From NCBI GenBank assembly GCA_012441205.1, contig GCA_012441205.1_4705.1: a stretch of 64,000 bases of DNA, one strand, 5' to 3'. The notes under the pieces were generated by a model that was not told the DNA's origin, searched no databases, and worked only from the letters and a program-made list of their open reading frames with translations. The stretch is from a phage. The position numbers were made by a program, and so were the translations under genes. Below are positions 232 through 63,983 of this stretch, in pieces; within the stretch, counting starts at the first letter, position 1, and each line of letters opens with the position of its first letter.

Positions 232-2238
232 TCATAACGTGATTACATCCTCCGGTTTAGGTTCTTTACGCGGTAAAAGCATGTAGTCGATCGGATGATC
301 TGGCTTCATGGTTGGGATATAACTGTTCGGGTTTTGGAACGCATCCAGTTGCTCTTGGTGAGCGAACTTCATACTCAAGGAGCGCATGTTCATGTTCTTC
401 TTGAAGGTACTGAAGTATCGTGTTGTTCCCTGTTTCGGCATGCGATAATCTTTCGTGTGTGGCGAACGAATCATGCTGGCGTAGAGAATAACATCGAGAT
501 GCGAAAGGTTCATTCGCAGACGCTGGGCACACAGACGATGCCAATAATACAGCACGTTTGCAACTTCTTCCGGCGTTGCTTCGTCTTCCGAAAGGAATCC
601 GGCACTGAAAGAACCTTTCCCGAATTTGAACTCACGTTCGATTTCTTTTGCGTATTCCATCATGTTTTTGTGGATTAACGGCATCTGGAATAACGTACGT
701 GAATTGTCCCAATGTTTCAAGTCGAAAATCACAATCCCGTCAGACGTCACTTCCCAGCTATGGCGTTTTAGATAACGGATAAACGCTTTACTCGGTACAA
801 CAGGACGACCGCAGAAATCGAAATTGACTTTGAGCTTACGATAGCTTTCATCTTTCCTGTCGTAAATCTCCATATCGCAAAGCGTCATGTTAAACAAACG
901 TTGCGGTATCAGCGAACTAATTTCTTCCGCTTCGGCTACGTCGTACAACATGTTCGCAAGACCTAACTTCATCTTAATCAGCACGTGTTTACCTTTCAGC
1001 TCACGTGCGAGTTTGATGTCGTTCATGTTCTGGCTGTAGCGAAGGATATGTTGATATTCCGGTGGGATTGGTGCTGTGGATACCGTTGACGAACCATCGT
1101 GGTGTTTGGTAGAAAGAATGTTCTGCGTTACCTGTTGCGAACAGGTACGCGCTGCGCCATCGCCGACATTATCGGTTAGTGCGAAGTTATGACTTAATTC
1201 ACCGTAACACGTTGTACATACCCCAGCAGGATCGGGATGATGGCAATAGTTAACGGAGCGCATGCGTACCGTCGTACCAATCAATTCTTTCATGTGTGGT
1301 TGTATCGCTACCAACGAACCGTCATCACGAATAATGAATCGACCATGGAAGCCACGCAGGTCGGTCTCATCACGGATTGGCATCGGGATGGTCTCTTTAC
1401 TACCACAATCACCAGGATGAAGTCGTTGTACAACCGCTGTCGCTATCTGAAGTTCACGACCGAAATATTCAGACTTTTTAATCTGCTCTTTGTTGAACAG
1501 CAACGATTTCGCCGCAGAACGACTTTCTTTCAAGCTGTCGGGAAGAGAGATCAAACCAGCTGCGTACGACCGCATTACTGGATCACGGAATATCTCGGAG
1601 TTAATATCAGTCAAGAATCCACGCATCCCAATACACTGTAGCACCTGCCCAATCGAAACGTGTTCGGTTCTTACCGCACGTGCAATAGGGTTTGCATGTA
1701 ACGTTTTATCGGTGCTCAGTACCTTGGTCAGTTTCTTGTATGCGCTTTCGATACCTTCACGGGTGGGTTCCGCTTCGGCGATGATTTTCTTAACTTCGGG
1801 GTGTACAGTAATCTGATAAAAATCATCCGCGCAAATCGTTGTTACGTATTCCTCCAACGCATACGTAAAGAAGTTATACACATTGTTAAACATATCGAAC
1901 AATGCTTTCCAGAGAACCTCACGATTCTCTTGTGGGTAAGCATACATGCATTGACGATACGCGGCGCTTTGCAACGCAACCGATGAACCCGCTGTGAACT
2001 TGCGTTTATCAACCAGGTTCTCTTTTGTCAGTGGTGTCTCAGGATACATGCGATGCACAGACCAGTGCATGTAACTAAAGAAAATGCGTCGCGCACGTAA
2101 TTCATGAACGCCATCGTCCATCTCGATATATACGCGGTCATTAGGCTGTGCCCACTCGAATACCTCATCAACCGGCCAGTGCATAAGCTCGCGTGCCCTC
2201 ACACGACGTTTCGTGGTGGTCGTCTGTGTTGTAGTCAT
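232..2238 (-). CDS. RNA polymerase beta-prime C-terminal-like subunit (split RNAP)
   Basis: 668 aa; ...AGVCTTCYGELSH...GAARTCSQQVTQNILSTKHHDGSS matches the bacterial beta-prime segment CAHCYGRDL...[27 protein letters not shown] RBS upstream. Confidence 0.7.
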   Translation of the reverse strand: MTTTQTTTTKRRVRARELMHWPVDEVFEWAQPNDRVYIEMDDGVHELRARRIFFSYMHWSVHRMYPETPLTKENLVDKRKFTAGSSVALQSAAYRQCMYAYPQENREVLWKALFDMFNNVYNFFTYALEEYVTTICADDFYQITVHPEVKKIIAEAEPTREGIESAYKKLTKVLSTDKTLHANPIARAVRTEHVSIGQVLQCIGMRGFLTDINSEIFRDPVMRSYAAGLISLPDSLKESRSAAKSLLFNKEQIKKSEYFGRELQIATAVVQRLHPGDCGSKETIPMPIRDETDLRGFHGRFIIRDDGSLVAIQPHMKELIGTTVRMRSVNYCHHPDPAGVCTTCYGELSHNFALTDNVGDGAARTCSQQVTQNILSTKHHDGSSTVSTAPIPPEYQHILRYSQNMNDIKLARELKGKHVLIKMKLGLANMLYDVAEAEEISSLIPQRLFNMTLCDMEIYDRKDESYRKLKVNFDFCGRPVVPSKAFIRYLKRHSWEVTSDGIVIFDLKHWDNSRTLFQMPLIHKNMMEYAKEIEREFKFGKGSFSAGFLSEDEATPEEVANVLYYWHRLCAQRLRMNLSHLDVILYASMIRSPHTKDYRMPKQGTTRYFSTFKKNMNMRSLSMKFAHQEQLDAFQNPNSYIPTMKPDHPIDYMLLPRKEPKPEDVITL

Positions 2239-2383
2239 TATTGCTTTCCGATTTAAATGGTTTTATCATACGGTTTACCAAATCCGTTGGACTTTACTAT
2301 CGTTGTGATAGCATCGGGAATCCCTTCCCTTAGGTTATGTAGGTGTTAATATATCTCCACTGCTGACCTTTATGTCGGCAGCA

Positions 2384-2869: not shown

Positions 2870-2983
2870 AATCTCATTTCCTCTTATACGTTAGGATAGA
2901 TGACATGTTGGATATACGTTGCCTTTGCATATATTGCTTTATTTCCGTCAGAAATAACGGAAAATAAAAACAACGACATAGTT

Positions 2984-3013
2984 CCCTCCCACCTCCACAT
3001 GGGAGAGGGAGGG
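2984..3013 (-). terminator. hairpin CCCTCCC/GGGAGGG followed by U-run on minus strand
   Basis: 7-bp GC stem, T-rich tract downstream in transcript sense. Confidence 0.5.
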
Positions 3014-4302: not shown

Positions 4303-6471
4303 TTAGCTTTCGCAGTCATCTGCGTCGATGATTTGTCCGCCAGCAACGTTCAGTTGATGATACAGAATCCTCAACGCACGGTTGCCGCCAATGGGATACT
4401 TCTCGAAGTTGGTCGCAATAGGAATCGCTGACGGTTTATCGGTCGCATAGATGCTTTCAGTGATGCTATCCACCTGTTTTGGATTGTTCGCATAATCCAT
4501 AAAGACGCTAGCAAACCATCCGCCAGCAAAGGCGGTAACTTCGCGATGTTCAGATTCACCGCAGTAACGAGTTGGTTGCTCTTTACCAGGAGAACTGTAT
4601 TTATCGCTATTACTGAGTTTCGACGGTAATCCATGCGCTTGCAGTTTAGGGATGCCCACCGCTGACCAGTCGTTCGCCGTCTTCTCCAACATCATGATGT
4701 ACGTGTCACCGATCGCAATATCGTTCTTGGTTGTCCGCCATTGCCCAGAACGTCCACGATACCGTACAGGACCTTTCTTCAACGGGAACTCACGAATCAG
4801 ATTCTCCATACGTTCTGAACCTGCTGCGATACTGTCCGTCGGGATATAAACTTCCGTACCGTGGCGCTGTACGTACCGTAAATGATCCCATTTATCCTCA
4901 TCCGTGATACAGTATTTTTCAACAACCTGTTCCACGAACTCAGGACTGACGATATAGTAGTAGCGCATCAGTGTGTTCCAAGCGGTCTCCAGATCGCCTG
5001 CATCCATCACCGGTTTCAGTTCACGCATGATCTGATCACCAACACCGTTGATGTATGGCGCATTAACACGACTTAAACTCATCCTTTTGATTACCGTGCT
5101 ATCGTCGAACATAAAGTCCGCAACGTTACCCCATTGGTCAACCGGCATTTCATCGTCTTCCATGATGTCGGTTACGACGAATTTATCACCCGCCATACCG
5201 GTGAATTTAAACCCGATACCCGGAACAACATCGTACGTGTATGTGATGGTCACACGCCAATCATCGAGATTCTCTTTACGGTAATCGCGGGTCGGTAACA
5301 CATGACGTAGCTGTCCGTTAGGATTGCGGATATCAATACCGTGTTCAGCATCAGCCAGGTTCAACCACCACATCACCGTTTGATGATGACGTATCGGCGT
5401 ACCAACGCGTTCACGTTCGTACTTACGAACAGCATCCTGAATTCGGGTGTAAAGCAAACCAATCGCGTTCTCGTATTTCAGGAATTGACGATACGGAGGA
5501 CGCATCTTCTCTTCCATCATAATCGCACGCTCGCGGGCTTGACGTCCAGAACGACGATGTCGGTCGCTGACAACATCGATATCCGTTACACGCGCATTCG
5601 GTTCCGCGTAAGTGAGATCATCGTAAACATAATCCACACGCTGAAGGTTACACGTCATCATGTCAACAACGCTGAGGATAGGATCGATTTCGCGCGTTGC
5701 TGCAAGTAACCCATCCTTACGAATACGCTCACCGTTCTCGGGTATTGCTTGATATACCTCATCATCACCGTAGAGATTGATTGGGTATCGTGATTTACCT
5801 GATGTGATCGTTCGCTTCTCAATGCCGGTACTGGTGAAATGCTTCAATACACCACGACGGGCAACACCACCATCCTCGATACACTGATAGAAGCTACCGA
5901 AACACACTTTGCAATCGCGACCGTAACCCCACTCGCGCGTTTCTTGATTGATCGCTGGGCTTTCCATCAAACGAGAATACCGCGGTACGATCTGGCCTCG
6001 ACGAAGGGAATGGAACAAGTTGGTTGGTCGAAAACGGAAACCATACTGCTGATGCATGATGTGATGCTCAGGCACTTCAAGCAAGCGTAGCTCGTGACGG
6101 TTACCATCCTCTTGGTTTTCATACAGCACGTAATGCATCGTGTTTGTTTTGATGCTGTTTGCTGTATGTCCTGGTTGAAACCGCGGAATGATATCTATGA
6201 TGCGAGATTCAACTGGAAACTCTACTGACCAAGTGTTCTGTCCGTACTGGTATTCAATCCCCGTCGTTAGTCGGGACGGTTTCGCATCTTTGATAACCAA
6301 CGCTTGGCTAAGATGTCCACCAAACATCGCAGCGCGCTGTGCTGAGTTATAATGCAGTAGCCCGTTAAGTCCAGTCCCTACGCCAGTATACTCCTGTTTA
6401 ATGGGAATGATTTTACCTTCAGCGATTGCCTGCTTCACAGATTCATAAAGAGGTTTTTCTTTATAATGCAT
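4303..6471 (-). CDS. RNA polymerase beta C-terminal-like subunit (split RNAP)
   Basis: AQRAAMFGGHLSQALVIKDAKPSRLTTGIE matches beta ANRALMGANMQRQAVP...KPLVGTGME; GMAGDKFVVTD...EDDEMPVD matches the GDKMAGRHGNKG...EDMPY region; C-terminal RYCGESEHREVTAFAGGW matches RFGEMEVWALEAYGAAY; start set at MHYKEKPL with AGGAAG RBS. Confidence 0.7.
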   Translation of the reverse strand: MHYKEKPLYESVKQAIAEGKIIPIKQEYTGVGTGLNGLLHYNSAQRAAMFGGHLSQALVIKDAKPSRLTTGIEYQYGQNTWSVEFPVESRIIDIIPRFQPGHTANSIKTNTMHYVLYENQEDGNRHELRLLEVPEHHIMHQQYGFRFRPTNLFHSLRRGQIVPRYSRLMESPAINQETREWGYGRDCKVCFGSFYQCIEDGGVARRGVLKHFTSTGIEKRTITSGKSRYPINLYGDDEVYQAIPENGERIRKDGLLAATREIDPILSVVDMMTCNLQRVDYVYDDLTYAEPNARVTDIDVVSDRHRRSGRQARERAIMMEEKMRPPYRQFLKYENAIGLLYTRIQDAVRKYERERVGTPIRHHQTVMWWLNLADAEHGIDIRNPNGQLRHVLPTRDYRKENLDDWRVTITYTYDVVPGIGFKFTGMAGDKFVVTDIMEDDEMPVDQWGNVADFMFDDSTVIKRMSLSRVNAPYINGVGDQIMRELKPVMDAGDLETAWNTLMRYYYIVSPEFVEQVVEKYCITDEDKWDHLRYVQRHGTEVYIPTDSIAAGSERMENLIREFPLKKGPVRYRGRSGQWRTTKNDIAIGDTYIMMLEKTANDWSAVGIPKLQAHGLPSKLSNSDKYSSPGKEQPTRYCGESEHREVTAFAGGWFASVFMDYANNPKQVDSITESIYATDKPSAIPIATNFEKYPIGGNRALRILYHQLNVAGGQIIDADDCES

Positions 6472-6502: not shown

Positions 6503-6856
6503 ATGTCTAACACGCCCCTGAACGACTTTCTTAAGACAAACCCCGATGACCTCATCCACGATCTTGATTTCAGGAACGTTGTTGAGATGCATCTGGAATA
6601 TTTCAAAAATGCCGGACTGGTCTCTACGATAGACATACCACCCGAACGCGCCTACGAATTCGATGGTAACTTTTATGGATTGTGTCGTGTTCTGCTCGGT
6701 GAGGGCAGTGAACCAATGCACTGGATAACCATGAGACTCAATGGTTATCGCGACCCTACGGAATACACCGCCGATGTTCTAACCATGAAGATTGTCGATA
6801 CAAGCGCAATCAACACATTAAAACAGCAGTATCGCACAATCCACTACAGCGCTTAA
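6503..6856 (+). CDS. hypothetical protein
   Basis: plus-strand ORF, ATG 7 nt after GAGG; divergent from the beta-C-like gene. Confidence 0.45.
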   Translation: MSNTPLNDFLKTNPDDLIHDLDFRNVVEMHLEYFKNAGLVSTIDIPPERAYEFDGNFYGLCRVLLGEGSEPMHWITMRLNGYRDPTEYTADVLTMKIVDTSAINTLKQQYRTIHYSA

Positions 6857-9845: not shown

Positions 9846-11432
9846 TTATTTTTTTCCTCTTAAATTTACTACGTGTTCATTTAATCGAACAACTAATTGC
9901 ACAAGCTGCTGACGGATATCTGCTGGACAAAGCATCAATCCTTTACGGTCAGCTGGGACTTTCTCAAGGATTTCCGGGCCTGCTGCTGAAACATCCCAAT
10001 CCCATTCACAAAACGCATCGGCCACCATGTTAATACCGACAACCGGTAAAGTTGTACGTTCATCTTCATACATGGCGTGTGGATACAATTTATTGACAGT
10101 AATGATCTCCTGTGGTTTTAATTGGTGGATAATCTGATAAACATCGTCGCGTTTAACCTGGATACCTACGGTAAGCGCTGCCAGTTGAGGAAAACCCCAA
10201 TGGTCTAACAAGCACGCTGCGATGGCTAACGCTTTTGCCTGATGCACGGCTTCAATCGGTGCCAGACTTCTCGCCGGAAGATGGCTATCAAGCAACCATT
10301 GTGCCAGTGCTCGGCATCCGCGGTTGATTGGTTTTAACTCAACGGTGTCATCGTGTTTAGCGTACGTGTATCCATCGTAACGTTTTGCGATACGCGCATA
10401 CATGTCTTCAACTTTACCGTAAGGTGCCGTTTCGTCGACGTCGTGCAACACACGTTCCATCTGGGTAAGATAGGCGATGTCAAGAATGAGTACACGCGGT
10501 GAACGTTTATCTTTCACCATCAACGCATCGATCACGCCTTGACTGTCTTCATCTTGCGCGTTCCCTCGTGGGGTTTTCTCACGAATCGGTCCACTGAAAC
10601 GTCGTTCCGTACAAAGGTTATTCACATAGCTAAAGATTAACGTTACCAGATGCGTACAACTCACTAACACCCCATCTTTAACGACAGGCTGTACGGCTTG
10701 GTCCAAGTCGCGTACGGCGAGACGGCGGACGATGGCTTGTGAACGCAACCAGCCAGGCACTTTCTCCGTCGACATGTAATCCACGGTCATCGACAGCGTG
10801 ATCTTTTTATCACCCGTTTGTGCGCGGATATAGTCTTCCAGTCGGTCGTAAGCGGCGATATCGTGAATGCGTGTTTTATACATCAACGACATAGCCACTT
10901 CTTCTTTACGAACCGTTCCGTACGTTTTCCCTGCGTCAATCAGAAACTCTGCCCAAATCGGCACCATCAGACGGACGTAGATCGCTAACGCCGTTAACTC
11001 AACGTAATCATTTCGTAAATAGGTTTTCTCAGGAATATCATCCTCACCTAATGTTGTTTTCATGTCCGGCGGTAATTTTACCCAACCTGGGGTATTACAC
11101 AACGCCAGAATCTCTTCGTACACAACCGGTTTGTAAATTTCACCAACAGCGCGACTCAACTCCTCCATTTGTTGTTGTGGAGCAATGTAGTTATCCATCG
11201 CTTCACGTGCTTTAACGAACCCTTCGAAGATGTCGTCAATTCGACGTGGGTTCTTTTGTTCTATCCAGGCGAGATACTTGTTAATCTCCCGCATCTGATT
11301 GCTAGCCATATCCCCATCAATCTTGATGTAACCCTGGCCTGAAAATTCCACAGTACGTCCATCACGGTGTTTGATGAGATAGTGATCCAGCTTTTCTTTT
11401 CCTTGCGTCGTAATGACGGGCACTATGTGCAT
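9846..11432 (-). CDS. hypothetical protein (downstream of a TATATTACC promoter-like element)
   Basis: start moved to ATG at 11432 (MHIVPV...) preceded by AAGAGG; the annotated N-terminal extension runs into the structured intergenic region. Confidence 0.5.
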   Translation of the reverse strand: MHIVPVITTQGKEKLDHYLIKHRDGRTVEFSGQGYIKIDGDMASNQMREINKYLAWIEQKNPRRIDDIFEGFVKAREAMDNYIAPQQQMEELSRAVGEIYKPVVYEEILALCNTPGWVKLPPDMKTTLGEDDIPEKTYLRNDYVELTALAIYVRLMVPIWAEFLIDAGKTYGTVRKEEVAMSLMYKTRIHDIAAYDRLEDYIRAQTGDKKITLSMTVDYMSTEKVPGWLRSQAIVRRLAVRDLDQAVQPVVKDGVLVSCTHLVTLIFSYVNNLCTERRFSGPIREKTPRGNAQDEDSQGVIDALMVKDKRSPRVLILDIAYLTQMERVLHDVDETAPYGKVEDMYARIAKRYDGYTYAKHDDTVELKPINRGCRALAQWLLDSHLPARSLAPIEAVHQAKALAIAACLLDHWGFPQLAALTVGIQVKRDDVYQIIHQLKPQEIITVNKLYPHAMYEDERTTLPVVGINMVADAFCEWDWDVSAAGPEILEKVPADRKGLMLCPADIRQQLVQLVVRLNEHVVNLRGKK

Positions 11433-11520: not shown

Positions 11521-11618
11521 GCTGAGTTATCGCTCAGCATGCAAGGCATCCCGCCGAAGCGAGACACCTTGCACTAACGGAAAATATTCGCGTTACCTTC
11601 TGAATCGAAGACTCAGAA
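11518..11618 (-). terminator. cluster of three stem-loops downstream of the SSB-like gene
   Basis: inverted repeats gctgag/ctcagc, gcaagg/ccttgc, ttctga/tcagaa. Confidence 0.35.
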
Positions 11619-18331: not shown

Positions 18332-18556
18332 TTAGCAATGGTTGTTAGTTGCTTCTATTTCGTCAAGATAAGGTTCTACGTCATCGCCCTCCACGAATTC
18401 GTTGAACCAACAGTCAATAGTGGAAATAACCGGTGACTGGTGTTCACATTTCTTAGATACCTTAAAAGGTACGTTATTATCCATCATACCGAGTTCGGGT
18501 CGAAAACGCCCGAAATGTTTCGCAGTCCAAATGTCTGGGACGATATGGTTGTTCAT
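18332..18556 (-). CDS. beta-prime N-like subunit, exon 3 (MNNHIVP...)
   Basis: MNNHIVP...GMMDNNVP...SPVISTID aligns with beta-prime QMAVHVP...LMMSTNNI...PIIVPSQD directly after DFDGD; in frame with the micro-exon. Confidence 0.55.
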   Translation of the reverse strand: MNNHIVPDIWTAKHFGRFRPELGMMDNNVPFKVSKKCEHQSPVISTIDCWFNEFVEGDDVEPYLDEIEATNNHC

Positions 18557-18916
18557 CAATATCTTCAATACGAATCGCTACTTCGTATCCGCAGCATTAC
18601 CTGCAGCTCCTGGTGTTACCAGGATGTTGAGAGTATATCATGTCCATATTCCAAATGGAACGTAGGACTTCCGCGCTGGATCTCGCTTGAGACCACTTAC
18701 TCGTTGAACGTTCTCCTAAAAGGAGCTTCGCTGCTGATTGGACATTGTTACGTACGGTAGGCGTCCCACTAAAGGGATTTTCATTGAAGCCGCGTACATC
18801 CGTTACCTTGTTTCTACCTTATCGGTTCCTCTTACGAGGCGTAACGGCTTTAGCCTATTCCAGCAATTCACGGAATGCATATTCTCCTTTTCAGGAGATA
18901 AGGCCATGGCTCTGGC
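18557..18916 (-). mobile_element. group I self-splicing intron 2 (ORF-less, about 360 nt; 5' boundary approximate)
   Basis: diverged tandem copy of intron 1 with the same P/Q/R/S order; P7 pairs compensate (GAGUA/UACUC versus GAUCA/UGAUC); 3' end GAAGATATTG| before ATGAAC. Confidence 0.6.
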
Positions 18917-18931
18917 ATCACCGTCAAAGTC
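18917..18931 (-). CDS. beta-prime N-like subunit, 15-nt micro-exon GACTTTGACGGTGAT (DFDGD)
   Basis: joins in frame to exon 1 to rebuild NADFDGD; the 5' splice site of the following intron is not resolved, so the exon could be a few codons longer. Confidence 0.55.
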
Positions 18932-19281
18932 CACGTATCTTCAGTATGAATCGCTACTTCATACCCGCAGCATTACCTGCAGCTCCTGGTGTTACCAGGA
19001 CGGAGAGATCATCTCATCACCCACGAAGGGTGTTCCGCGCTACCCTCAGCGAATTCGAGGGACATGATCGTTGAACCTTCCACCGATGATCGATGGCTAG
19101 GCTGCTGATTGGACATTGTGCGTTGGGGTGGCATCCTGGTTCAGGACTGTCATTGAAGCCTCCCAACATCCACTCACTTATTTCCGCCTCATCGGCTCCC
19201 ACAAGGGCAGAGTGGCTTTAGCCCGTCTCAGCAATTCACGGAATTCAAGCTCTTCCTTTCGGAAGGCAGGGCCTCATTTGA
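18932..19281 (-). mobile_element. group I self-splicing intron 1 (ORF-less, 350 nt)
   Basis: exon ends GCU| with a possible U.G pair in P1 (GCUUC/GAGGC); P-like GAATTGCTG, Q-like AATCAGCAGC, R-like GTTCAACGATCA, S-like GATGATCTC; 3' end GAAGATACGTG| before GAC. Confidence 0.7.
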
Positions 19282-20532
19282 AGCGTTGTATCCCTTAAGG
19301 ATCATCACGCTTAACCCGATGGTGTTATCCTGCGGATCGCGTTTAACCTTGGTGATTTCAAGACATTGGTTACTGCTTCGGTCAAGTGATGGGTTTCGAA
19401 CAAAGCCACACACAATCCCATCGAACGGTGTATCAGCAATAAGCTCATCGTGCAGCTCGCTCATCATTGGATGATAATTACGGACATGTTCCGCAACGAA
19501 CGCACGTGCTGCTCTTGGCGAATAACCACGATGGAATAACTTGGATTGGATATGTTCTTTATTGGTTAAAGTAAATGGTGCGTATGGGAAATGCAGATGA
19601 TAATAACGATGGTTTGCTGTTATCGAACTGATTACGGTACGCGTGGTGAATGGATGTAATGTACCTAATATGTTTTTACGTGTGATACCTTTCTTCTTAC
19701 CAATGAACTCATCGAAAATTGCTGCGTGGTATTGCAGTAGCTTCAATTGTACTTTCGCCATCCAGTTTTCTTTCTTTCTGGCGCTCAAAGGTGTTGTTGG
19801 GTGATAGATACTATTCAACGTACCGATAGCATCGATCGCACCTTCCATTTTGCTATCTGCATAACGACCGGTTGGCGTATTCTCGATAACGAACATCATG
19901 GCCGCAGGAAAGCTGATATACTGACTGAAGAACTTATCACGATGGATACGGATGAATTCTCGTAGCGTGTCAACTTTCTCCGTGTTCTTCGGTCCACGTA
20001 ACGTAGGTCCTTTATACAAGATCTCCATGATGCGATCGAAGTTCTGTATAAAGCTATTTACGCCACGTCGTATCCCGAATACATCGAATTGCTGCTCCAG
20101 ATAGTTCTTGAGTTCGATGGGTCGTTTTACATTTGGACGGTAACTGGCATCAATGAGCCACGTCATCGTTTCAAAGCTTTTGATATTCAACTCGCTTGCC
20201 AGCACGAGATGGACCAACGGGTTAATGAACGCATCAATTCCTTCAGGAACACGCGCCCAAACCGTCGAACGAATCTCTTGTTCTGCTGGATAGGTTACAA
20301 CCGTTTTACAGTTCGGACACACCGTACCGAGCAGCTCACCACGATTGTAGAAACCACAACCACATTGTGGTGTGATATCCAACGTATCGCTGGAGTAAAC
20401 ACGGGTGATAAAACTGTTTAATTTCTTCTTCTCTTCGACGACTTTTGTATCGTAATCATTCAACAAAATCGGCGTGAAAGGAAGTTCTGCGAGCTGTCTA
20501 TCGAAACTCACGATATCGAGCATGATGGCCAT
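19282..20532 (-). CDS. RNA polymerase beta-prime N-terminal-like subunit, exon 1 (ends ...KGYNA)
   Basis: zinc-finger CGCGFYNRGELLGTVCPNCKTVV matches beta-prime [41 protein letters not shown] matches NLLGKRVDYSGRSVI; the ORF runs to GYNA and then reads through into intron sequence. Confidence 0.75.
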
Positions 20533-20624: not shown

Positions 20625-22520
20625 TTAGAACAGGTTGAATGCCCCACCCATGTTGTTAACGCCAACATTCGGACGATCGCTACGTGCGTAGATGTTACCG
20701 GAGATGTTACCCAGACCACGAGCACGTGCTGCCATGTTACCACGAACAGCGGTACCTGCCAGATGCTGGATGTTCTCAGGACGGATGGTGAAGCCAGCAT
20801 CAGCAGCGGCCTCGATCAGCGCCTGCAGTGCTAACGGATCGAAGTCGTAACGCATTGCCCAGCCGGTTTGTTCCCAGCTACCAGACAGAACACGATCAAT
20901 GATTTCGTGACGAGCGACAACACGCTGAGACATCGTCATATCGGTACGGTCGAAGCTGTCTTCCCAAGCTTCTACGGTATCCGGGTTAGTGATGTTCATC
21001 ATGTACAGATCGTCCATATCACGAATATCGTGACGGTGACCATCCTGGTGGTTATAATGACCCAGCGGGATACGGTTACCGGTAGCGTAGACCAGTGGTG
21101 CGCCGTACTGATATTTCTTGCTGAAGCAACCCAGGGTAGTATCATCGAAGGCACGGAAGAGTGCTTTGTAACCTTCGGAGATTTCCCGGACTTCACCTTC
21201 AACTTTGCCCGTATAGATCTTCTCAGCCGCCGGGATCATACGCAGCAGCCAGCTGTATTCGCCTTCTTCCGGTACGTCGATAGAAATCAGCAGAGACGGA
21301 TACAGTACCTGTTGCAGGAACTTGTAAATCTGCTCGTTGGTTTGAGTAGACAGATCCAGCGGTGCGGTAACTTCCGGATCCAGTACCATCGCCAGAGCAC
21401 CCGGGTTATGCGGACCAATACCACGAGCAGCGTTGCTGATTAAAGACTGTGCCCACGCCATACCGCTGTTCAGCGTAGCGATGGTGCCAATCAGACCCAA
21501 CACGAAAGTGTTCGGCGTGAACGCATCCAGCTCCAGCGGGTAAGCGCTGGTCATCACGTAACGCGGTTGGTATTGTACAGTCGGCGGTACCGGATAACCG
21601 TTAACCAGAACAGGGCCTTGGTTGAAGGTCGGGTTCTGCGGGCTGTAGGTCAGGTCAATGTAACCGGTGGTTGCGACCAGACGCTGCTGACTATCGTAAT
21701 CGCTCATCGCTTGACGGATGCGGTTAGAGATAGTTACAGTGATGTCAGAACGCACAGGGTTACCAACAATATCGCTGTCCTGCATACCGCTGGTGTTGTA
21801 CTGAACGCTGCTGATTGGCTGATCGCTTGCCATCATGCCCAGGTTGAACTGCGGCAGACCCAGTTTATCGCCGAGACGGATTTCGATCGCGGTTTGGATT
21901 GCGTTATCTGCAGCAGACAGCAGGGTGGTTGCCAGATGCGCAGATTCAGCGGTGATTTCATTGGTCACCACAGCCAGACCAGCGATACGAGCAGTACCAT
22001 TAGACTTACCACCGATAGCTGCATACATTGCCGCCATGACTTCGTTGATGAACGTACCGTTCAGGTTATCAACCCAGGTACGCGGCACCAGAATGTTACC
22101 ATGCGGGCCTTGTTCTTCACGACGCGGCAGCGGAGCCAAACCGGCAACCAGTGGAAGCACATAACCGAAGAAGTGGTTATGGTCACCAACTTTTGCACCG
22201 CTCATAACAACCAGGGTCGGATACGGTACACTGTATTGGTTAGGATCGACGGTCACCATGATGAAGTCGTCTTTGAATCCTTTATCTTCCAGTTCTTTTT
22301 CCATCAGACGACGGAGATTCAGTACCTGCTCGGAGCCAGTATTACGGCTAATACGACGGCTCAGTGTACGGTTGATCGTACGCATCGTATGAGTTACTTT
22401 AGGCTGGCCAGCAAAATCTGCAGCGGTTTCCAGCGCCTCATCAGCACGTTGTGCGGTGCGGGTTTCAGCTGCACGAATTTCTACATTATCGTTACCGTTA
22501 TTACGTACGTCTAAGCCCAT
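20625..22520 (-). CDS. abundant early protein, candidate nuclear-shell (chimallin-like) protein
   Basis: 631 aa with flexible N/C tails, strong AAGAGGAA RBS, TATATTACC element about 75 nt upstream, lies directly upstream of the beta-prime-N gene; identity not verified. Confidence 0.35.
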   Translation of the reverse strand: MGLDVRNNGNDNVEIRAAETRTAQRADEALETAADFAGQPKVTHTMRTINRTLSRRISRNTGSEQVLNLRRLMEKELEDKGFKDDFIMVTVDPNQYSVPYPTLVVMSGAKVGDHNHFFGYVLPLVAGLAPLPRREEQGPHGNILVPRTWVDNLNGTFINEVMAAMYAAIGGKSNGTARIAGLAVVTNEITAESAHLATTLLSAADNAIQTAIEIRLGDKLGLPQFNLGMMASDQPISSVQYNTSGMQDSDIVGNPVRSDITVTISNRIRQAMSDYDSQQRLVATTGYIDLTYSPQNPTFNQGPVLVNGYPVPPTVQYQPRYVMTSAYPLELDAFTPNTFVLGLIGTIATLNSGMAWAQSLISNAARGIGPHNPGALAMVLDPEVTAPLDLSTQTNEQIYKFLQQVLYPSLLISIDVPEEGEYSWLLRMIPAAEKIYTGKVEGEVREISEGYKALFRAFDDTTLGCFSKKYQYGAPLVYATGNRIPLGHYNHQDGHRHDIRDMDDLYMMNITNPDTVEAWEDSFDRTDMTMSQRVVARHEIIDRVLSGSWEQTGWAMRYDFDPLALQALIEAAADAGFTIRPENIQHLAGTAVRGNMAARARGLGNISGNIYARSDRPNVGVNNMGGAFNLF

Positions 22521-30477: not shown

Positions 30478-31458
30478 TTAGAAAAGCAAGAAACCGCTAT
30501 TCTTCGCTTCCGCTACAGTTTCGTCACCAACTTTCGGCGCTTGTTGACGTGCGTTACGATGTTCGATGTAACGTTTCGCTTCGTCCGCGATCTGTTTGAT
30601 AATACCCCCTAAACGATCGGTACTTAAAACAAACGACGTCGCTTCACGAATTGGGCTGCTTTCAGGCACAAAACCATCGCAGCTGTAAATAGCGCTAACG
30701 CCCATGACTTTTGTCGCGTCTTTCGGATAAAGCGTACAGAAAGCAATCGGGCTATCGTTCTCTTTCGTCCAATCGTATCCCATGAACGTATTCAGTTCGG
30801 TGATCGTTGGTTCCAAACCGGTAACACGTGGATGGTTTAAGAAGTTTTCCAGGTCGGCGCTGTCAAGACGACGGTTCTCGCCAGAAAACAGAACACAAAG
30901 CTGGCTAATAACAACCTGCACGTCCAGGTTGACATCCTGCTCCGATTTCCCATTTTCGCCATTCATGTGATAGCTAACAATCACTGGACGTTTCAACCCT
31001 TCTGCAGCCGCCATCAGTCCTTTGAAGGTGCGATCGGCGTTGATCGTTTGACGCTCGTCATCGAACGAGGCAACGATGCAACACACCACACGTTCACCAC
31101 GTTCCAGCAGGTTAGCAACCAACGCAGGACCTGCAACAGAACCTGAACCACCGCTCAGACTAAAGACCACGATATTAAATTTACCTGGCGTATGCTTATT
31201 CAGAATACCCGGGATTTGTGAACAGATCAGTTCAGCGTTCTCATCACGCTTCTTACCAGAACCGTCTAACTCACGACCGGCTACATCTTTAAAGATGTAA
31301 ATATGATCGTCACCCAGTGTGCTATCGCGTAGGTTAGCGCGGCTGGTATCGACATACGTCATGCTGTGTAATCCTTTCGCGACTTCGCCTTCAAATGCTG
31401 AGCCGATTTCGCCACCACAACCACCGACAGCCCAAATATGTACTTGGTTCTCTTGCAT
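30478..31458 (-). CDS. phuZ: tubulin/FtsZ-like GTPase, PhuZ-like
   Basis: N-terminal IWAVGGCGGEIG (T1 loop-like) and FSLSGGSGSVAG (tubulin signature GGGTGSG-like); 326 aa. Confidence 0.65.
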   Translation of the reverse strand: MQENQVHIWAVGGCGGEIGSAFEGEVAKGLHSMTYVDTSRANLRDSTLGDDHIYIFKDVAGRELDGSGKKRDENAELICSQIPGILNKHTPGKFNIVVFSLSGGSGSVAGPALVANLLERGERVVCCIVASFDDERQTINADRTFKGLMAAAEGLKRPVIVSYHMNGENGKSEQDVNLDVQVVISQLCVLFSGENRRLDSADLENFLNHPRVTGLEPTITELNTFMGYDWTKENDSPIAFCTLYPKDATKVMGVSAIYSCDGFVPESSPIREATSFVLSTDRLGGIIKQIADEAKRYIEHRNARQQAPKVGDETVAEAKNSGFLLF

Positions 31459-56815: not shown

Positions 56816-56841
56816 GAGCAGGGGCATGAAGCCCCCTGCTC
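56816..56841 (-). terminator. hairpin after the beta-N-like gene
   Basis: 10-bp stem gagcaggggc/gccccctgctc followed by GUUUAUUUCG. Confidence 0.5.
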
Positions 56842-59800
56842 TTATTTGGCGTCGTTAAAATAAATATCAACAGCTCGTTCCGTTGCGTAGAGGAGACCAA
56901 GATTCACAGTCCCAACCACTTCCGGTGAACCGATGATACGGTTAGCGATACTGGTGCCACTGAAGATAGCATCAAGGGTGTGCCCGTCTTCGGTTTTGTT
57001 CACACCATGACCCACGGAAGAGACAACGGATTTCGCTTGAGCTGCGAAGGTACCTTTATCGCCCATCCCCGCACCAAGGTCGTAACGCATGAAAATACGG
57101 ATTGCGATCTGGTTCTCGCCTAACGGATTACCGTCTATTCTCACGTTACTGTTATTGATACGCCCCGTAGTTGCTTCGTTGAGTTTCAGTTCCTTAACGC
57201 GTTTAGCTCGCGCTTTATCTGCATCACCGACGAGCGCCGCCATGGTTTCACTCATATCCTCAATCTGAGCGCGGTACAGCACATCGATCTGTACAACTTC
57301 ACCATGAACGTCAGCACGTGGGTTATACTGACTCATACGACGTAATGCTTCAACGGCTTCCTGACTCTCATCACTCAGATCGGTCGCAATCGGTTCTTCC
57401 AGTGTTGCAAGGATCGTTCGTGGTTCAACATGATCGCCGATTTTCACGAGACCACGAATGTTGAGATGGGCGTCAACGATGAGCGTACGGCTCTTAATCG
57501 ATGGTGTTACGAGACGATCGGCAAGATTGTCGAAGATATACGAACTGTCCTCGTGAGTCTCTGGAATATCCAGAATACCGACAAGAGACAGAACACCTGC
57601 GCGCCAAACAACCTGACCTGGGTTCCACCAATCGCGTTTAAAATAAAGACGATGGAAGACCACCACATCCTGATCCTTAACGCGATCCCCGACTTTATAA
57701 TCGGTAATGAGATCGTGAGGATAATACTTACCTGGTCCTTTCCCGATTATCGTACCGAGCTGGAAAACCTCTTCCCCTAACTCTGGATCGTCGTATTGTA
57801 TCGTCAGCGCAGTTTTGGTGACCTTCTTAACAACACCGTCACCTTGGGCGGCAGCTGCAAAGAGTTTACCAACACGATGCGCGATGACAGTCTCACCGCC
57901 GGTGCGCCACGGTTGTACATCGTAACCCTCAGCGGCAATCATGCGGTTGTGTTGGATCCCGACGAAGACCAGACGTTTTCCATCATCACGGTCTACAGCC
58001 GGAACAGCTAACGCTGACGTACTCATTACCGATGAGATGCCGTCTGTCTTTTCATCGAATGGTCGTGTTTCACCATACACCGACACGATATTAGCATTAG
58101 GTGCAAGGTAAGCAGAGATACCCACATCCCCACTATCTTTCGTACCCTCTGACACAATACCAACATCGGACTTGTCGTATTCACGATCACGTGCGCGTCG
58201 AAGCGATGTCTTTGAACGACCCCCGATACCGGTCATCGTTGCTTCTTCACCCTGCTTGATATCCAGCATCGGGTTGGTTTCATCGATCACGATGGACGCG
58301 CTGTCGTCGAGAATTTGGTTCCAGACACTTACCGGACTGATTGAGATTTTCTGGCGGTTTCCTTGACTGCTGTTCTCATTCTGACGAATAGCGCCAACCA
58401 GATCCTTATACACCAATTCAGCGAACTTATCGTACGTTTTAAAACGTTGGTAGTTCACATCGTTCGTGTTAGGTGCCCAATCATCCAGAAGCAGTTCAAC
58501 AGCACGCAGTAACAACATGGCGAAATCGGTAGGTTCTCCCATGTTCTGTAGCAACGTACGGCTTACCGGATCAACGAAAAGACGCTCCATGAGTTCAAGT
58601 TCGCGTAAATGGCGAACCTTAAGTCCGGCACCATCGACAACGTTAAAATAGATATCTCGATTGTCGAAAGCACCGCGAGCGTAACCGATGTAGTTACGGT
58701 ACTCGTTAAATCCGCCCAGCAACAACGTCGTCATGCGATCGTCTTTACTGAAGATCAAACTTTCGTCATCAAAGCTCACCGCGAATTCATCGGGTGCTAG
58801 ACCCATACGAGAACCGCGAGGTACCGTACGATAGTTCGCTTTAAGATGTTCTAATAACGGGGTAAGTCCACCCAGATAACTTAGAACAACACCAACCGGA
58901 ATACGTACACCCATGAATTCAAGATCGGCGGCTTCGATCGGCATCTTAGCCGCATTGATACCGAAGAAATCAGGGAACGTCCCTACAGGTGTTGGTGTTT
59001 GTCCTGACTGACAGATATAGAGCTGATTGCGTTTATCGATTGCTAAGAATTCACCCAGCGTGTTACGCGCAAACGTCAGGAGCCCTTCGGCTAACTGTTC
59101 GTTGAACCGATCTTCCCCGATGAACTCCGGTAGCGTTTTTATATCGAGACGTATATCCCAATCAGCAAATTGGATTTGGGTATAGTTGCGTGCAAGCACA
59201 GCGAAGTAATACGGGACTTTGACGGCCGGATCAAAGACGTTACCACGTTTTAACGTGGTTAAGGGTGAGGACTTATCGTAATACATCGCTGTAAGTTGGC
59301 GTGTTAACCAACGACCGGCGTTATTAACGACACGCTCTGAACGTTTAACAAACACCTTACCGTAGGCGGTACTCAACGCAACTTCGGATGATGATACCTT
59401 TCTAATAGGTTTATCAACACGTTGTTTACGCATCCGGTATTTGATGCCGTTAACGACATAAATGCCGTCCTTACGAACCTTCGGCAACATCACCGGGAAC
59501 GTGGTTGGGACACCGCCTACAGGGGCCAGTTTAATCGTGATGACTTGATAATCCCCCATCACGTCAACAACATCTTCAACTTTATATCCCGTGACAGGGT
59601 AACCTGCCTGTTGTACGGCAACAACAGCGGCTGCGATGTCCTTTTGCATCACGTGTTCAACGTAATGTTTATCCCACACCGCAAGCGTCGATTTACATAG
59701 GCTCTTATCGACGATAACATCCGCTTCCGGCATAACCTTTGCTGGCGCTAATTTCGCGGCTTTTGGTTTAACTTCAACATACTCAGCAAGTGTTAATCCA

Positions 59801-61188
59801 GAACCGTCGGGTGCTTCGATTTCATGGATGGCGTCAGCATTACGCATCGCTGCTTTATATTGGACGCCGCTTAACTGACCCGCATCAGCCAGATCGCTCG
59901 CGCGTACCAACACCGCATCCGATAACGACTGAATATATTCACCGTGCGTTTTTGGTAACGTTGCCGCGTCAAAGACATCAACCTTTTCTTCTTCGGTATC
60001 GTCGGTAACGACTTCGAAGAGATCGTCGGTAATGTCCTGATCTTCATCAGGTTGAAAATCCGGCTGTACTTCTACCCCGGGTACTTCACGGACATCTTCG
60101 AACGAGCGTTCTACAATGGCGTTCCACGCATCAGCGTCATCGTCTTCATCCGACCCACCAACCAACTCCGCTTCTAACTCATCGGAATCAAGAACAGTGG
60201 CCAGATCCTCACCGTTAGGAAGCACGACGTCGCGATCATCGTACTCTGCATCCGGGCTGTCCGCAAGAATATCTCGCTCTTGACGAAGAACCTGTTCCTC
60301 TTCTTGTTTCTGTTCTTCTTCATTCGCGCTCTGCGACCATAGACGTGTTACCGCCATCATCCAACGACGCTGGAAGGTTTCGAGTGTCGTTTTATCGAGT
60401 TCTTCCCCTTCCTTTACAAGCCCGGTACGCCATTCTTCCAACAGGCCGAGATTCAGCGTAAAGAAGTACACACCGTCTGTAAATACAACGTTAAGCTTAT
60501 CCAGCGTGGCTCTGTCTAACGAAGCCATTGTGCTGTTCTCACGATCGGTTCCCAACCAGCGGAAGAAGTCAAAGAACGACAGCTCCTCCGGCGTGGCGAA
60601 ATTCATGAGGTTGTTACGGGTCGGTGCCTGTTGCGTGGTACGCATCAACGAAATCTTCGGCAATGTTGACGGTATACGGAACAACAAAAAGTGTTGGCGA
60701 TCGCTTTGCTGCGCGATTTCGTTGGCTTTCGACCAAATTGTTTTACGTACGTTGAACCATTCATCATACCAACGGGTGAGCGTTGGACGATAGATGTACA
60801 TGTGGTTAAGATGTGCGTAGTTAGCAACGATCTGAGCGTTGATGTTTTTCTCCACCGTACTTAGATCGGTAACCAAACGAAAACGACGATGTGACGCACG
60901 ATAATCCAATTTCGCTCGTGGGAGCTGGAATCGCTGATCACGTCGAGGTGCACCCTGTTTGGTTGCGAGATCATCAGCAAACGAAATCCATAGTTGAGCA
61001 CTTTCTTTACTCAACATGTATTCGTTTTCTGGAGGACCTATCAATGAAGGATCCGTTGCGGTGTAATGATAGACAGCATAACGTGGCAGCTGCAATAGCT
61101 GCACTAAACGTAATCTCGGTGACAATAGCTCTTGGTATCGTCTGACGCCAAACTGTCGGTAGTAATCAAGGTATTTAAGTTTTGCCAT
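56842..61188 (-). CDS. RNA polymerase beta N-terminal-like subunit with about 500-aa acidic N-terminal extension
   Basis: [14 protein letters not shown]...AGRWL matches beta [20 protein letters not shown]...RGSWL; [32 protein letters not shown] matches [43 protein letters not shown] matches LIPFLEHDDANRAL; ends after a GDK...GHTLDAIFS segment matching GDKMAGRHGNKG...GTPVDIVLNP. Confidence 0.65.
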   Translation of the reverse strand: [1448 protein letters not shown]

Positions 61189-61191
61189 GGG

Positions 61192-61371
61192 TTAGGCTCC
61201 ACGAGGTCCCGTTAAGTTGCGTAATAGGAACGCAACCGTATCGTAACCAATATCGATGTTGAATTTATTTTTACCACTTACCCAGAAAGCTCGCTTCTTG
61301 TGCGAGTTGGTAATTTCGTCAATAGCTTCCATGGAATAAAGAACGTTAACCGAGACCGTATCACCGTCGAA
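61192..61371 (-). CDS. second beta-prime N-like subunit, exon 2 (FDGDTVSVNV...)
   Basis: in-frame continuation after the intron; FDGD-TVSVNVLYSMEA matches FDGD-QMAVHVPLTLEA; stop lies 3 nt before the beta-N-like start. Confidence 0.55.
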   Translation of the reverse strand, partial: FDGDTVSVNVLYSMEAIDEITNSHKKRAFWVSGKNKFNIDIGYDTVAFLLRNLTGPRGA

Positions 61372-63353
61372 CCTTATCTTCGCCTCAGGTCGCTACGCTG
61401 AGACCGCCTGCATGGATACGTACATCACAGGCTGCTTGCACTTTCATGCAAGAGGAGACTATATCAAACCGGCAGCACAACCTGCTACGGTAACCTACAC
61501 TTCGAAGACGCTCGTCCTCTACAGGGTGGTAAATCCCTTAGTCGTTGAACCTGCGTTGTTTCCCATTCTTGCAAACAAGAATGCCGTATTGCTACGCAAC
61601 AACCAGGCTGCTGATTGCCCATTGTTTCGCACCTTAGCACCGCTTACGCGGCTTTTCTTTCAGCCTAAGCCTCTTACGGAGTTAGTGCATCTCAACTGTT
61701 GTTTCTGCCTTTCGGCACCTCATGGGTCGTTGAGCTTTAGGGGTTCCCAGCAATTCGTAGGTTTTTCAAGCACTCCCTTTCGGGAATACCGGACTCATTA
61801 TTAGCTTATTTATTCAAGTATCTGAAATCCCACTTATCTTTACGTCGTTTATCGCACTTAATGTCAGGATGATTAACACGATGCCTAATAGTTGTTGCCG
61901 ATAGCTGGCTGAGATTCTCAGCAGATCGTGCGCCAAGAACAACGAGTTTTGTGTCGTCTGGACGCGTAACTTCTACTGCCCGATAATGCTTACGTAACAC
62001 ATCACGCCAATATTCACGACGTTCTGGTTCAGCATACTCAAGCATGTAACCGTTAACATCTACTAAACCGTAGCTTTCGTTTAATCGAGAGGTAGCGGCT
62101 GGTTTACTAATACCGATTGCTTTAGCCGCATCGACCACGGTTTTATACGGGGTCTCATTACCGTCTCTATCTACAACCACAATGAAATCTGGACGTGAAT
62201 CGAGTAGCTGCTGTCTGCGTTCGACGGCTTGTTGATGAAGCACCATGTTAACGTGTTCGAACCCGTAACCTTCTGGGCCACGCCATCCTGGATTGTTGTT
62301 CGCTCGATAAAGTATCGTCGATGATTTCACTCCAGTCTGACGCGATGCCTCGTTTGCGCTATGAACAACCGTGGTAGAGCCATCAGGATGATATATCCGT
62401 ATCTGGTTCATTATACCGGAACCAATGAAGTTACCATCGGCTGATTTAATGTCCGGCCATGGTTGCGGGTCATCTTTGAATTTAACCACCCAGCGGTTGT
62501 TAAACAGCTTAACTTTTCGAACATGTTTGCCTAATGTCGTATCCGTAACACCTGCGACCACTGACGCTTGTGTAATGCTCAGGTACTCAGTAACGGTATC
62601 GTTCCAAGTATCCCAGAGCAGAACCGGTTTATTGTCGTCACGTAAACCATGTTCGATAGCATGCAGGACATTACGACTTCTGGTTGCCCATTCCAGATTG
62701 TCAAGAGAATAGTTCCACTTATCAGCATCAAGATGATTAACGTCCATCTTATCGACATTAGCCGGATATTCCCGCCACGCCAACATCAAGCAGCGATGTA
62801 AAACCTTAGTTCTCGTTGTATCTCGACAATCGTGACGTAGACTAATGAATACGTAGTTATCCTTTTTCGGATACGATCTGCATTCCTGTCCATCCTTGCG
62901 GGAGATAACTCGCCCTTTCTCATTTATCAGATAACGAGTATGTCCAGGAATAACACGATAACCAGGGTACTTAGCGATCTCATAAGCAGGCTCGAAACGA
63001 TAGGATAAGTTATCAACATCCCAATTAGATTCGTCGCCGTCAACAAACATCGCTTTGACGTACTTCTGTGTTTCAATATCAACCAGGATGTTTTTGTGTG
63101 CGATACAAATCAATGCTGGGATATTGAATTCGCGACCAGCTAAAGTAACAGTGTCGCCGTTTCTCGGTATCGCGACGTGGGTATCACGATACCGTAAGTT
63201 TCCATAGCCGTCTATTTCAATCCAGCTCAGAAACGGAATAGATATAAATTCTTTTTCAGATACTCGCCATTTAAACATATTAACACCTATTAAATAGGAA
63301 ACATCATATTAATAGGTTTAAAAGTTAAAAATGACAGAAAATGGCTAAATTGA
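61372..63353 (-). mobile_element. group I intron 3 (about 1.98 kb) carrying an HNH endonuclease ORF
   Basis: 5' end GAU|UCAAUUUAG... with a 6-bp P1 candidate (GAUUCA/UGAGUC) that includes U.G at the splice site; core after the ORF has P GAATTGCTGGG, Q AATCAGCAGC, R GTTCAACGACTA, S GATATAGTCTCC with P7 GACUA/UAGUC; GNRA-loop P9-like hairpin; 3' end GAAGATAAGG| before TTC. Confidence 0.65.
61806..63278 (-). CDS. HNH homing endonuclease (intron-encoded)
   Basis: VNHLDADKWNYSLDNLEWATRSRNVLHA is a classic HNH motif; own AGGTG RBS; lies between the intron 5' splice site and the ribozyme core. Confidence 0.7.
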   Translation of the reverse strand: MFKWRVSEKEFISIPFLSWIEIDGYGNLRYRDTHVAIPRNGDTVTLAGREFNIPALICIAHKNILVDIETQKYVKAMFVDGDESNWDVDNLSYRFEPAYEIAKYPGYRVIPGHTRYLINEKGRVISRKDGQECRSYPKKDNYVFISLRHDCRDTTRTKVLHRCLMLAWREYPANVDKMDVNHLDADKWNYSLDNLEWATRSRNVLHAIEHGLRDDNKPVLLWDTWNDTVTEYLSITQASVVAGVTDTTLGKHVRKVKLFNNRWVVKFKDDPQPWPDIKSADGNFIGSGIMNQIRIYHPDGSTTVVHSANEASRQTGVKSSTILYRANNNPGWRGPEGYGFEHVNMVLHQQAVERRQQLLDSRPDFIVVVDRDGNETPYKTVVDAAKAIGISKPAATSRLNESYGLVDVNGYMLEYAEPERREYWRDVLRKHYRAVEVTRPDDTKLVVLGARSAENLSQLSATTIRHRVNHPDIKCDKRRKDKWDFRYLNK

Positions 63354-63983
63354 ATCACCACCAAGTCCGGCGAGGTATGGCGCAGGGACAATAGTCGTTT
63401 CTACGAACGAAGCATTAGGTAACCAGTCGGGGTATTCCCATGCGATAAATCGTTCATCCGTTATTGGTTCCCAGTTACTATCCAGTTCGGTTTTCGGTTT
63501 TGCGGCGACGGTTGTACGTGCGTAACAGGTTAACGGGATAACGGATTGCATACCTGATACCGGATAACGTGTTACCATCGCAGCCAGGTTATTCCAGTAC
63601 TTATATCCGGCAATATAGATAAGCTCGGTGTAAGTAATGGGGTGAACATCCGCGCCAGGTTTATTCAACATCTCCGGGGGTAATTCACTCATGTCACGGA
63701 ATAACCGAAACGAATCGTTGTTCACATAGACGAGGCAAAGATATCGTCCATTGACCATGATAGGCTCGTTACGCACGCCAGGATCGCTTAAGGTGTTCAG
63801 TAAACGTTCTATTCCGTCCCATGTTGTAAAGTCATCGATGGTGTCTGGATCAAGCGTGACGCGCTCACGTTCCATCGTTTCGGTATCAATAAGTTCAACT
63901 TCTGTAACATCACGGACAAATATTTCCTGCAAAATACCGGTACGTAACGCATGTTGCGTTACTGGGAGAGCGGCTTTACTCAT
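63354..63983 (-). CDS. second beta-prime N-like subunit, exon 1 (ends ...YLAGLGGD; 5' end may be incomplete)
   Basis: TRYPVSGMQSVIPL matches beta-prime RVDYSGRSVITVGP; the terminal D supplies the first Asp of DFDGD; the last two codons and stop of the raw ORF are intronic. Confidence 0.5.

Follow-up and report, generated by a model that had tools for sequence, protein, structure and literature searches.

A 64,000-nucleotide (nt) stretch of phage DNA (GenBank assembly GCA_012441205.1, contig GCA_012441205.1_4705.1; the whole stretch is referred to here as the window) almost certainly belongs to a Goslar-like nucleus-forming phage and carries pieces of two separate multisubunit RNA polymerases (RNAPs), in which the beta and beta' subunits are split and both genes for the N-terminal piece of beta' (beta'-N) are interrupted by introns. 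An initial annotation had reported five RNAP fragments and proposed that they probably represent two enzymes, as in phiKZ-like phages. All five are RNAP-like in searches of PHROGs, the Protein Data Bank (PDB) and family profiles, though a sixth component (resembling phiKZ gp68), the introns and the truncation of one gene at the window end had gone unseen. The assignment to two enzymes is borne out: three pieces are homologues of subunits of the phiKZ non-virion RNAP (nvRNAP), two are homologues of subunits of its virion RNAP (vRNAP), and the genes lie in phiKZ order. The transcription apparatus that defines phiKZ-like phages consists of two split RNAPs (PMC4666361, PMC7598289, PMC8287921). Their occurrence in the window is an already known hallmark of these phages (Chimalliviridae) and is no new biology.

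The whole window was matched by Escherichia phage vB_EcoM_Goslar (NC_048170.1) in three collinear blocks of 96-98% nt identity (blastn against the Goslar interval 148-218 kb), and the two share gene content and gene order. Goslar, of the genus Goslarvirus, is a phiKZ-like jumbo phage of 237 kb that forms a nucleus. Only positions 18906-19282 of the window fall outside these blocks, where they replace 1467 bp of Goslar. The Goslar counterparts of the six components are, in order, gp165, gp171, gp175, gp247/gp185 and, for the two vRNAP genes, gp207 and gp205.

Subunits of the non-virion and virion RNA polymerases

Four of the six components are encoded by uninterrupted genes, given here with the evidence for each (aa, amino acids):

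232..2238, minus strand: nvRNAP beta'-C subunit, 668 aa, homologue of phiKZ gp74 (PDB, PHROGs, Goslar gp165)
4303..6471, minus strand: nvRNAP beta-C subunit, 722 aa, homologue of phiKZ gp71-73 (PDB, PHROGs, Goslar gp171)
9846..11432, minus strand: fifth nvRNAP subunit, homologue of phiKZ gp68 (PDB, phrog_3209, phiKZ gp68-gp74 gene order)
56842..61188, minus strand: vRNAP beta-like subunit, 1448 aa, homologue of phiKZ gp178 (blastp, PHROGs, family profile)

The beta'-C-like label that 232-2238 had received is supported by matches to phiKZ gp74 (PDB chain 7ogp_D, E = 1.3e-86) and phrog_3015 (4.7e-170), and the protein also matches bacterial beta' at residues ~733-947. The beta-C-like label at 4303-6471 was equally sound. 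The open reading frame (ORF) at 4303-6636 matches phiKZ gp71-73 (7ogp_C, E = 1e-85) and phrog_3295 (2e-180), with a weak match to Pfam PF00562, and residues 420-601 of the protein align with E. coli beta 1063-1241, placing its GDK at residue 428. The start at 6471 had been chosen correctly, as it is served by an AGGA ribosome-binding site and supported by comparison with Goslar gp171 and phiKZ; a start at 6636, giving a 777-codon ORF, is a mechanical extension and was rejected on these grounds. The component that had been overlooked, at 9846-11432, matches PHIKZ068 (PDB 9rjs_B/7ogp_B) with E ~5e-28 over residues 68-563, and phiKZ gp68 is the sigma-like fifth subunit of the nvRNAP (PMC8287921). 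A GTG start at 11567 was likewise discarded as mechanical, the probable start lying near 11432 after Goslar gp175. With the gp55 homologue described below, the window thus holds four of the five nvRNAP subunits of phiKZ (homologues of gp55, gp68, gp71-73 and gp74). It shares with the phiKZ enzyme (PDB 7OGP/7OGR) the sites at which the subunits are split, the DFDGD and GDK motifs and a gene block adjacent to chimallin, whereas the proteins themselves are only ~30-35% identical.

The 1448-aa protein is homologous over its full length to phiKZ gp178 (blastp, 32% identity over 1465 columns, 726 bits) and to phrog_3148 (E = 0); its 4.3-kb gene is 96.1% identical to that of Goslar. A single-sequence PDB search with this protein gave no match and a word-indexed homologue search gave just four, while an exhaustive search of representatives with its C-terminal 949 residues gave 2200 family representatives. 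A profile built from 43 homologues matched Thermus thermophilus beta (1iw7_C, 2.7e-16) in four collinear pieces, in which profile positions 525-541, 925-992, 1001-1132 and 1315-1361 correspond to beta residues 118-134, 394-462, 529-656 and 822-870. The family profile therefore spans T. thermophilus beta from ~118 to ~870 of 1119, and the GDK of the protein, at residue 1376, was placed within the fourth piece. The protein had been labelled beta-N-like; membership of the beta family stands, and judged from this alignment it is roughly four fifths of beta, from the N-terminal part through GDK, which is more than the label implied. Residues 1 to ~500 (59700-61188) are conserved within the phage family, with no similarity to cellular beta detected. 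There is an acidic low-complexity stretch at about residues 290-400, and a strong GC-rich hairpin of nine pairs followed by a T-run (56816-56841) lies directly past the stop codon, where a terminator is annotated in Goslar.

Both beta-like proteins had been said to carry an NRAL/GDK region. The overlap at GDK is real, but that at NRAL fails: in the beta-C protein NRAL occurs 25 residues before the C-terminus and does not represent the DDANRAL motif, while in place of E. coli DDANRALM the 1448-aa protein reads DDGKRLVF.

The order of the nvRNAP block matches phiKZ gp50-gp75, inverted: helicase, gp74, gp71-73, gp70, gp69, gp68, then further along gp55, chimallin (gp54), gp52 and DNA polymerase (gp50). 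That of the vRNAP block matches phiKZ gp175-gp181, namely head protease (gp175), gp176, gp177, gp178, gp179, gp180 and tail fibre (gp181). Homologues of gp178 and gp180, of at least four vRNAP subunits, are present among head genes and in the same order as in phiKZ, whose record annotates both as structural head proteins; identity to the phiKZ proteins is 32-36%. The phiKZ nvRNAP purifies as gp55/68/71-73/74/123, whereas its vRNAP consists of gp178/149/180/80, is injected and transcribes early genes (PMC4666361, PMC8287921, PMC11077065). By homology, the nvRNAP of the window, whose genes sit in the conserved block beside chimallin, would be made after infection and would transcribe middle and late genes, while the vRNAP would travel in the capsid, enter the cell together with the DNA and transcribe the early genes. 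Self-encoded RNAPs make phiKZ-like infection independent of the host enzyme. For the phage studied here we infer virion packaging, the temporal roles and independence from host RNAP from the phiKZ literature.

All of the fragments are RNAP-like and lie on the minus strand, and in the window beta'-C and a clear beta-C are each represented by a single piece, which would also suit one highly fragmented RNAP. We regard such an arrangement as highly improbable. The two beta'-N genes are paralogues that each have a catalytic DFDGD motif of their own, and GDK is found in both beta-like proteins, so that these overlap in coverage rather than complement each other. Moreover, every piece has its orthologue among the subunits of one or the other phiKZ enzyme, which are biochemically separate (PMC4666361, PMC8287921). 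When vRNAP and nvRNAP paralogues were compared pairwise with phmmer, only the motif neighbourhoods aligned.

Pfam returned almost nothing for the single RNAP fragments (one sub-threshold match to Rpb2_6), which is explained by the strong divergence of the proteins and by the splitting of the active-site domain by introns; beta'-N homologues that are uninterrupted do carry PF00623, the Rpb1 active-site domain. This near silence, the lack of a single-sequence PDB match for the 1448-aa protein and the NRAL of the beta-C protein, which is truly a chance match in the wrong position, are what speaks for the proteins belonging to unrelated families, with DFDGD, GDK and NRAL arising by chance. Of the explanations considered this is the least probable, and we give it practically no weight: PDB, PHROG and profile searches place every piece in RNAP beta or beta' with E-values of 1e-15 to 1e-180, and profile or PDB searches upheld every subunit label, the profile searches ruling out an unrelated family. 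The five PHROG families matched by the five stretches are all described as 'RNA polymerase beta subunit', which is also the RefSeq label on all five matching Goslar genes.

Group I introns at the catalytic codons of both beta'-N genes

A permissive Rfam scan of the window gave exactly three matches to the group I intron family RF00028, each lying where a beta'-N gene encodes DFDGD, and no match to another Rfam family even at E up to 0.1. The introns, I1 to I3, and the exons around them are listed in the direction of transcription:

19282..20532, minus strand: nvRNAP beta'-N exon 1, 417 codons, ending ...ILKGYNA (phrog_2987, Goslar gp247)
18932..19281, minus strand: group I intron I1, 350 nt, without an ORF (RF00028)
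18914..18931, minus strand: nvRNAP beta'-N exon 2, an 18-nt mini-exon, GACTTTGACGGTGATGCC, encoding DFDGDA with the catalytic Mg-binding aspartates (sequence, intron-free allele)
18557..18913, minus strand: group I intron I2, 357 nt, without an ORF (RF00028)
18332..18556, minus strand: nvRNAP beta'-N exon 3, 74 codons and stop, MNNHIVPD... (aligns to the phiKZ gp56.1 part of 7ogp_A; Goslar gp185)
63354..64000+, minus strand: vRNAP beta'-N exon 1, 3' part, ending ...AGLGGD, homologue of phiKZ gp180 (open frame, phrog_2986, gp180 identity)
61372..63353, minus strand: group I intron I3, 1982 nt, at GAU/UUC, that is D/FDGD (RF00028)
61806..63278, minus strand: predicted HNH homing endonuclease within I3, 490 aa, homologue of phiKZ gp179 (Pfam, PHROGs)
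61192..61371, minus strand: vRNAP beta'-N exon 2, FDGDTVSVNVLYS..., 59 codons and stop (sequence)

Here and below, a slash within codons marks the intron position.

The stretch 18332-20532 had been read as one beta'-N-like ORF. The subunit was correctly named, since the spliced product is a homologue of phiKZ gp55, but the gene consists of three exons and two introns. Positions 19228-20532 match phrog_2987 (4.3e-115), and the exon 1 protein is 100% identical to Goslar gp247 over residues 1-419. The spliced product matches PDB 7ogp_A, the chain in which phiKZ gp55 is joined with gp56.1, with E = 1.1e-74, AR9 beta'-N with 3.6e-14 and bacterial beta' (residues 330-471) with ~1e-4 to 3e-3, and its restored motif YNADFDGDA aligns with NADFDGDQLN of phiKZ gp55. 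This 497-aa product and its Goslar variant are both found letter for letter in a public protein collection, where they derive from uninterrupted genes on Logan contigs, which validates the predicted nvRNAP splice junctions.

The second beta'-N-like stretch, 61192-63983, is a homologue of phiKZ gp180 as its label implied. It too is not a single ORF, and 63983 is not a start codon: the reading frame stays open and runs off the window end. As exon 1 of the Goslar gene has 502 codons, ~274 N-terminal codons (~0.8 kb) must lie beyond the window. Positions 63345-63998 match phrog_2986 (7.2e-62), the product of 61192-64000 is 36% identical to phiKZ gp180, and a profile of 42 homologues of that product matches AR9 beta'-N (7s01_d, 1.6e-15) and bacterial beta' (~1e-6). 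The exons join as ...GGT GAT (63354) / TTC GAC GGT GAT (61371), that is GGD/FDGD, and the resulting GGDFDGDT, like the nvRNAP motif, aligns to E. coli beta' 455-477 and phiKZ gp55 417-421. The nvRNAP junction was thus checked on the window product itself, whereas the vRNAP junction was checked on the equivalent Goslar sequence: spliced Goslar vRNAP beta'-N (548 aa) equals the intron-free protein P0155 with 100% identity and 100% coverage, and P0155 has 235 member sequences, on contigs of up to 236 kb.

I3 scores 57.8 bits against RF00028, above the gathering score of 50, with its ribozyme core at 61435-61821. In its P1, GAU/UCA pairs with UGAGUC and a U.G pair stands at the splice site. The HNH gene separates the 5' splice site from the guide sequence of P1. 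Its product matches Pfam HNH_3 (PF13392; 5.7e-9, 35.9 bits against a cutoff of 24.8) and phrog_59 (1.5e-28), is 32% identical to phiKZ gp179 and has NUMOD1-like DNA-binding repeats below the cutoff; by these matches it is predicted to be an intron-encoded HNH homing endonuclease. The first ~50 nt of I3, from the splice site to the HNH start, differ between the window (GAT/TCAATTTAGCC...) and Goslar (GAT/CAAGGAAAGGC...; Goslar piece L002 28750-30760), while the rest is ~96% identical.

I1 and I2 are paralogues, about 70-72% identical to each other. They score 30.1 bits (E = 1.6e-5 local, 9.5e-4 window-wide) and 30.4 bits (E = 1.3e-5 local, about 1e-3 window-wide), respectively. At the 5' splice site of I1, AAC GCU/U, P1 contains a U.G pair, and all three introns end in G. 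An RNAalifold consensus of seven I1/I2-type sequences contains 90 pairs, 30 of them with double compensatory changes, including P1, and has a covariation term of -12.5 kcal/mol. The P1 splice-site pair corresponds to alignment columns 6/15, which hold U.G in five sequences and C-G in two, and the C-G variant of I2 is fixed in all eight independent contigs that carry the two-intron allele. These contigs (~235-240 kb, from NCBI isolate assemblies and ENA metagenomes) share an 821-nt segment at 97.6-99.3% identity, and the 434-aa read-through ORF of the allele is indexed in 151 blocks of the public collection. Two other readings of the I2 junction were tried and rejected. With a 5' splice of I2 after GAU (DFDGD/MNNH) the product would lack one residue found in phiKZ and Goslar, and the U would be left without a pairing partner; a longer exon 2, DFDGDARAMALF, is at odds with the homology to I1 and Goslar I2 and with the intron-free allele.

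Neither beta'-N frame is continuous, stop codons follow right after the exon ends, and I1 and I2 lie under the Rfam gathering score. The broken frames at 18332-20532 and 61192-63983 might on this basis be pseudogenes or assembly errors, a view that we hold to be very unlikely. Both frames are interrupted by group I introns, which have P1, a terminal G and covarying helices; taking these out restores the frame precisely at the catalytic motif. The nvRNAP protein obtained in this way is identical to the product of an intron-free allele, the vRNAP junction is matched likewise on the Goslar sequence, and the protein encoded by nvRNAP exon 1 is fully conserved with Goslar. The recurrence of the two-intron allele in eight independent contigs argues that it is no assembly artefact. 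Group I introns thus break the (N/G)xDFDGD codons of both beta'-N genes, so that both would need RNA splicing for their expression, and we infer that the introns are spliced in vivo.

A number of points weigh against the reading of a phage with two RNAPs and spliced beta'-N genes. I1 and I2, at ~30 bits, fall below the Rfam gathering threshold of 50 and are therefore overlooked by a default scan. The splice-site pair in P1 of I2 (18911-18916) is C-G (GCC/A) and not the near-universal U.G, for which an extended 9-bp exon-guide pairing may compensate. The published peptide fingerprinting of Goslar, covering only ~10 abundant virion proteins, left RNAP subunits unresolved. Homologues of gp149 and gp80 lie outside the window, as does that of gp123: a gp123-like protein is not among the remaining large ORFs of the window and is presumably encoded elsewhere in the genome. 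Finally, the phiKZ introns of gp56, gp72 and gp179, group I introns with endonuclease genes that PMC10914365 cites as predicted in 2002, were not detected as spliced in the long-read transcriptome of phiKZ under the conditions used (PMC10914365). At the protein level, however, purified phiKZ nvRNAP contains a fused gp71-73 polypeptide (PMC4666361), and gp55 and gp56.1 form one chain in the PDB entry.

Intron polymorphism among related phages

The codons of the beta'-N motif (G-Y-N-A-D-F-D-G-D-A-M) of chimalliviruses could form a hot spot for the recurrent insertion and duplication of related group I introns and for sequence exchange among them, a proposal that we judge to be evenly balanced. 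In nvRNAP beta'-N, five insertion positions fall within ~26 nt: GGG T/AT (Logan contig L007), AAT/GCT (phiKZ), GCT/GAC (window), GAC TT/C (Goslar, L007) and GCx/ATG (window, Goslar, L007). The vRNAP beta'-N gene adds a sixth position, GAT/TTC. Alleles of the nvRNAP gene range from intron-free (P0276, P0277) to three introns with 13-nt exons between them.

I1 is absent from Goslar. Its place is taken there by a 1.45-kb intron that carries an HNH gene (gp186) and is inserted 5 nt further 3', at GAC TT/C, in contrast to the 350-nt ORF-less intron of the window at GCT/GAC, and the mini-exon before I2 is accordingly 13 nt in Goslar (piece L001 19855-21661) against 18 nt in the window. I2 is common to both phages except for a diverged P1/P2 region, the splice-site pair being U.G (GCU/U) in Goslar and C-G (GCC/A) in the window; the HNH-carrying intron of the vRNAP gene is also shared. 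Three introns were found on contig L007 (1447-2590), at GGG T/AT, at GAT TT/C (of the Goslar type, without HNH) and at GCT/ATG, separated by two 13-nt exons. In phiKZ, one endonuclease-carrying intron interrupts gp55 at AAT/GCT (piece L006 11186-12560) and another lies in gp71-73, whereas in the window the beta-C gene is uninterrupted and beta'-N has two ORF-less introns at other positions. The phiKZ vRNAP gene, on the other hand, has a group I intron (92 bits) with the homologous HNH gene gp179 at GAD/FDGD, the same position as I3.

The 5' part of I1 in the window (P1-P2) is nearly identical to that of Goslar I2, and AC GCU stands at the end of the 5' exon in either case. These features, like the paralogy of the two ORF-less introns, are consistent with ectopic spread in which an I2-like intron reached a neighbouring site that matches its guide sequence. 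Some contigs (L010, L012) have the 3' hairpin of I1 in I2 and that of I2 in I1, with stem pairing preserved, suggesting gene conversion between the tandem copies.

An HNH-carrying group I intron at conserved catalytic-region aspartates of a chimallivirus vRNAP gene is known from the PhiPA3 gp210 system (Birkholz et al. 2024, PMC11620839). There, however, it lies in the vRNAP beta gene (gp211/209, the homologue of gp178), which is uninterrupted in the window, where the intron is in beta'-N. The HNH endonuclease of the PhiPA3 intron mediates competition with co-infecting phiKZ (PMC11620839; reviewed in PMC12908238). Among multi-intron phage genes, nrdE of Staphylococcus phage Twort has two group I introns (PMC113830); in contrast, I1 and I2 of the window lie 18 nt apart (13 nt in relatives) within one active-site motif and are paralogues exchanging sequence. 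In the literature searched, the coverage of which is incomplete, no account was found of Goslar-like phages with tandem or triple introns and micro-exons, so that novelty is unproven; we regard the hot spot as a side observation of modest novelty. The active-site codons of two essential genes hold three group I introns, which vary in number, position and endonuclease content among genomes that are otherwise 96-99% identical. If the hot spot is real, it could serve as a natural system for intron competition and homing immunity among co-infecting jumbo phages.

Annotation and genomic context

RefSeq gives Goslar one Intron_gpI feature per beta'-N gene and enters the nvRNAP beta'-N exons as separate coding sequences. 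The present analysis would improve annotation by providing a joined, spliced coding sequence for both beta'-N genes, by describing the 1448-aa protein as most of beta and by recording the gp68-like subunit. The remaining large ORFs of the window encode no RNAP-like protein besides the six components, and no tRNA genes were found in the window. G+C content is 44-49%, and the minus strand holds nearly all genes. Two further genes are of note:

20625-22520, minus strand: chimallin, which forms the nuclear shell; its gene lies immediately upstream of that for nvRNAP beta'-N (Pfam PF25677, matched on identical contigs)
30478-31458, minus strand: PhuZ tubulin, close to the nvRNAP beta'-N gene and chimallin (Goslar annotation)

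The two genes together point to a nucleus-forming phage. No match to the window or to a Goslar-like phage came from complete E. coli RefSeq genomes. Near-complete Goslar-like genomes, on contigs of ~235-243 kb, occur in isolate assemblies labelled Salmonella enterica, E. coli, Shigella and Enterobacter hormaechei as well as in metagenomes, which points to frequent carriage of, or contamination by, this virulent jumbo phage.

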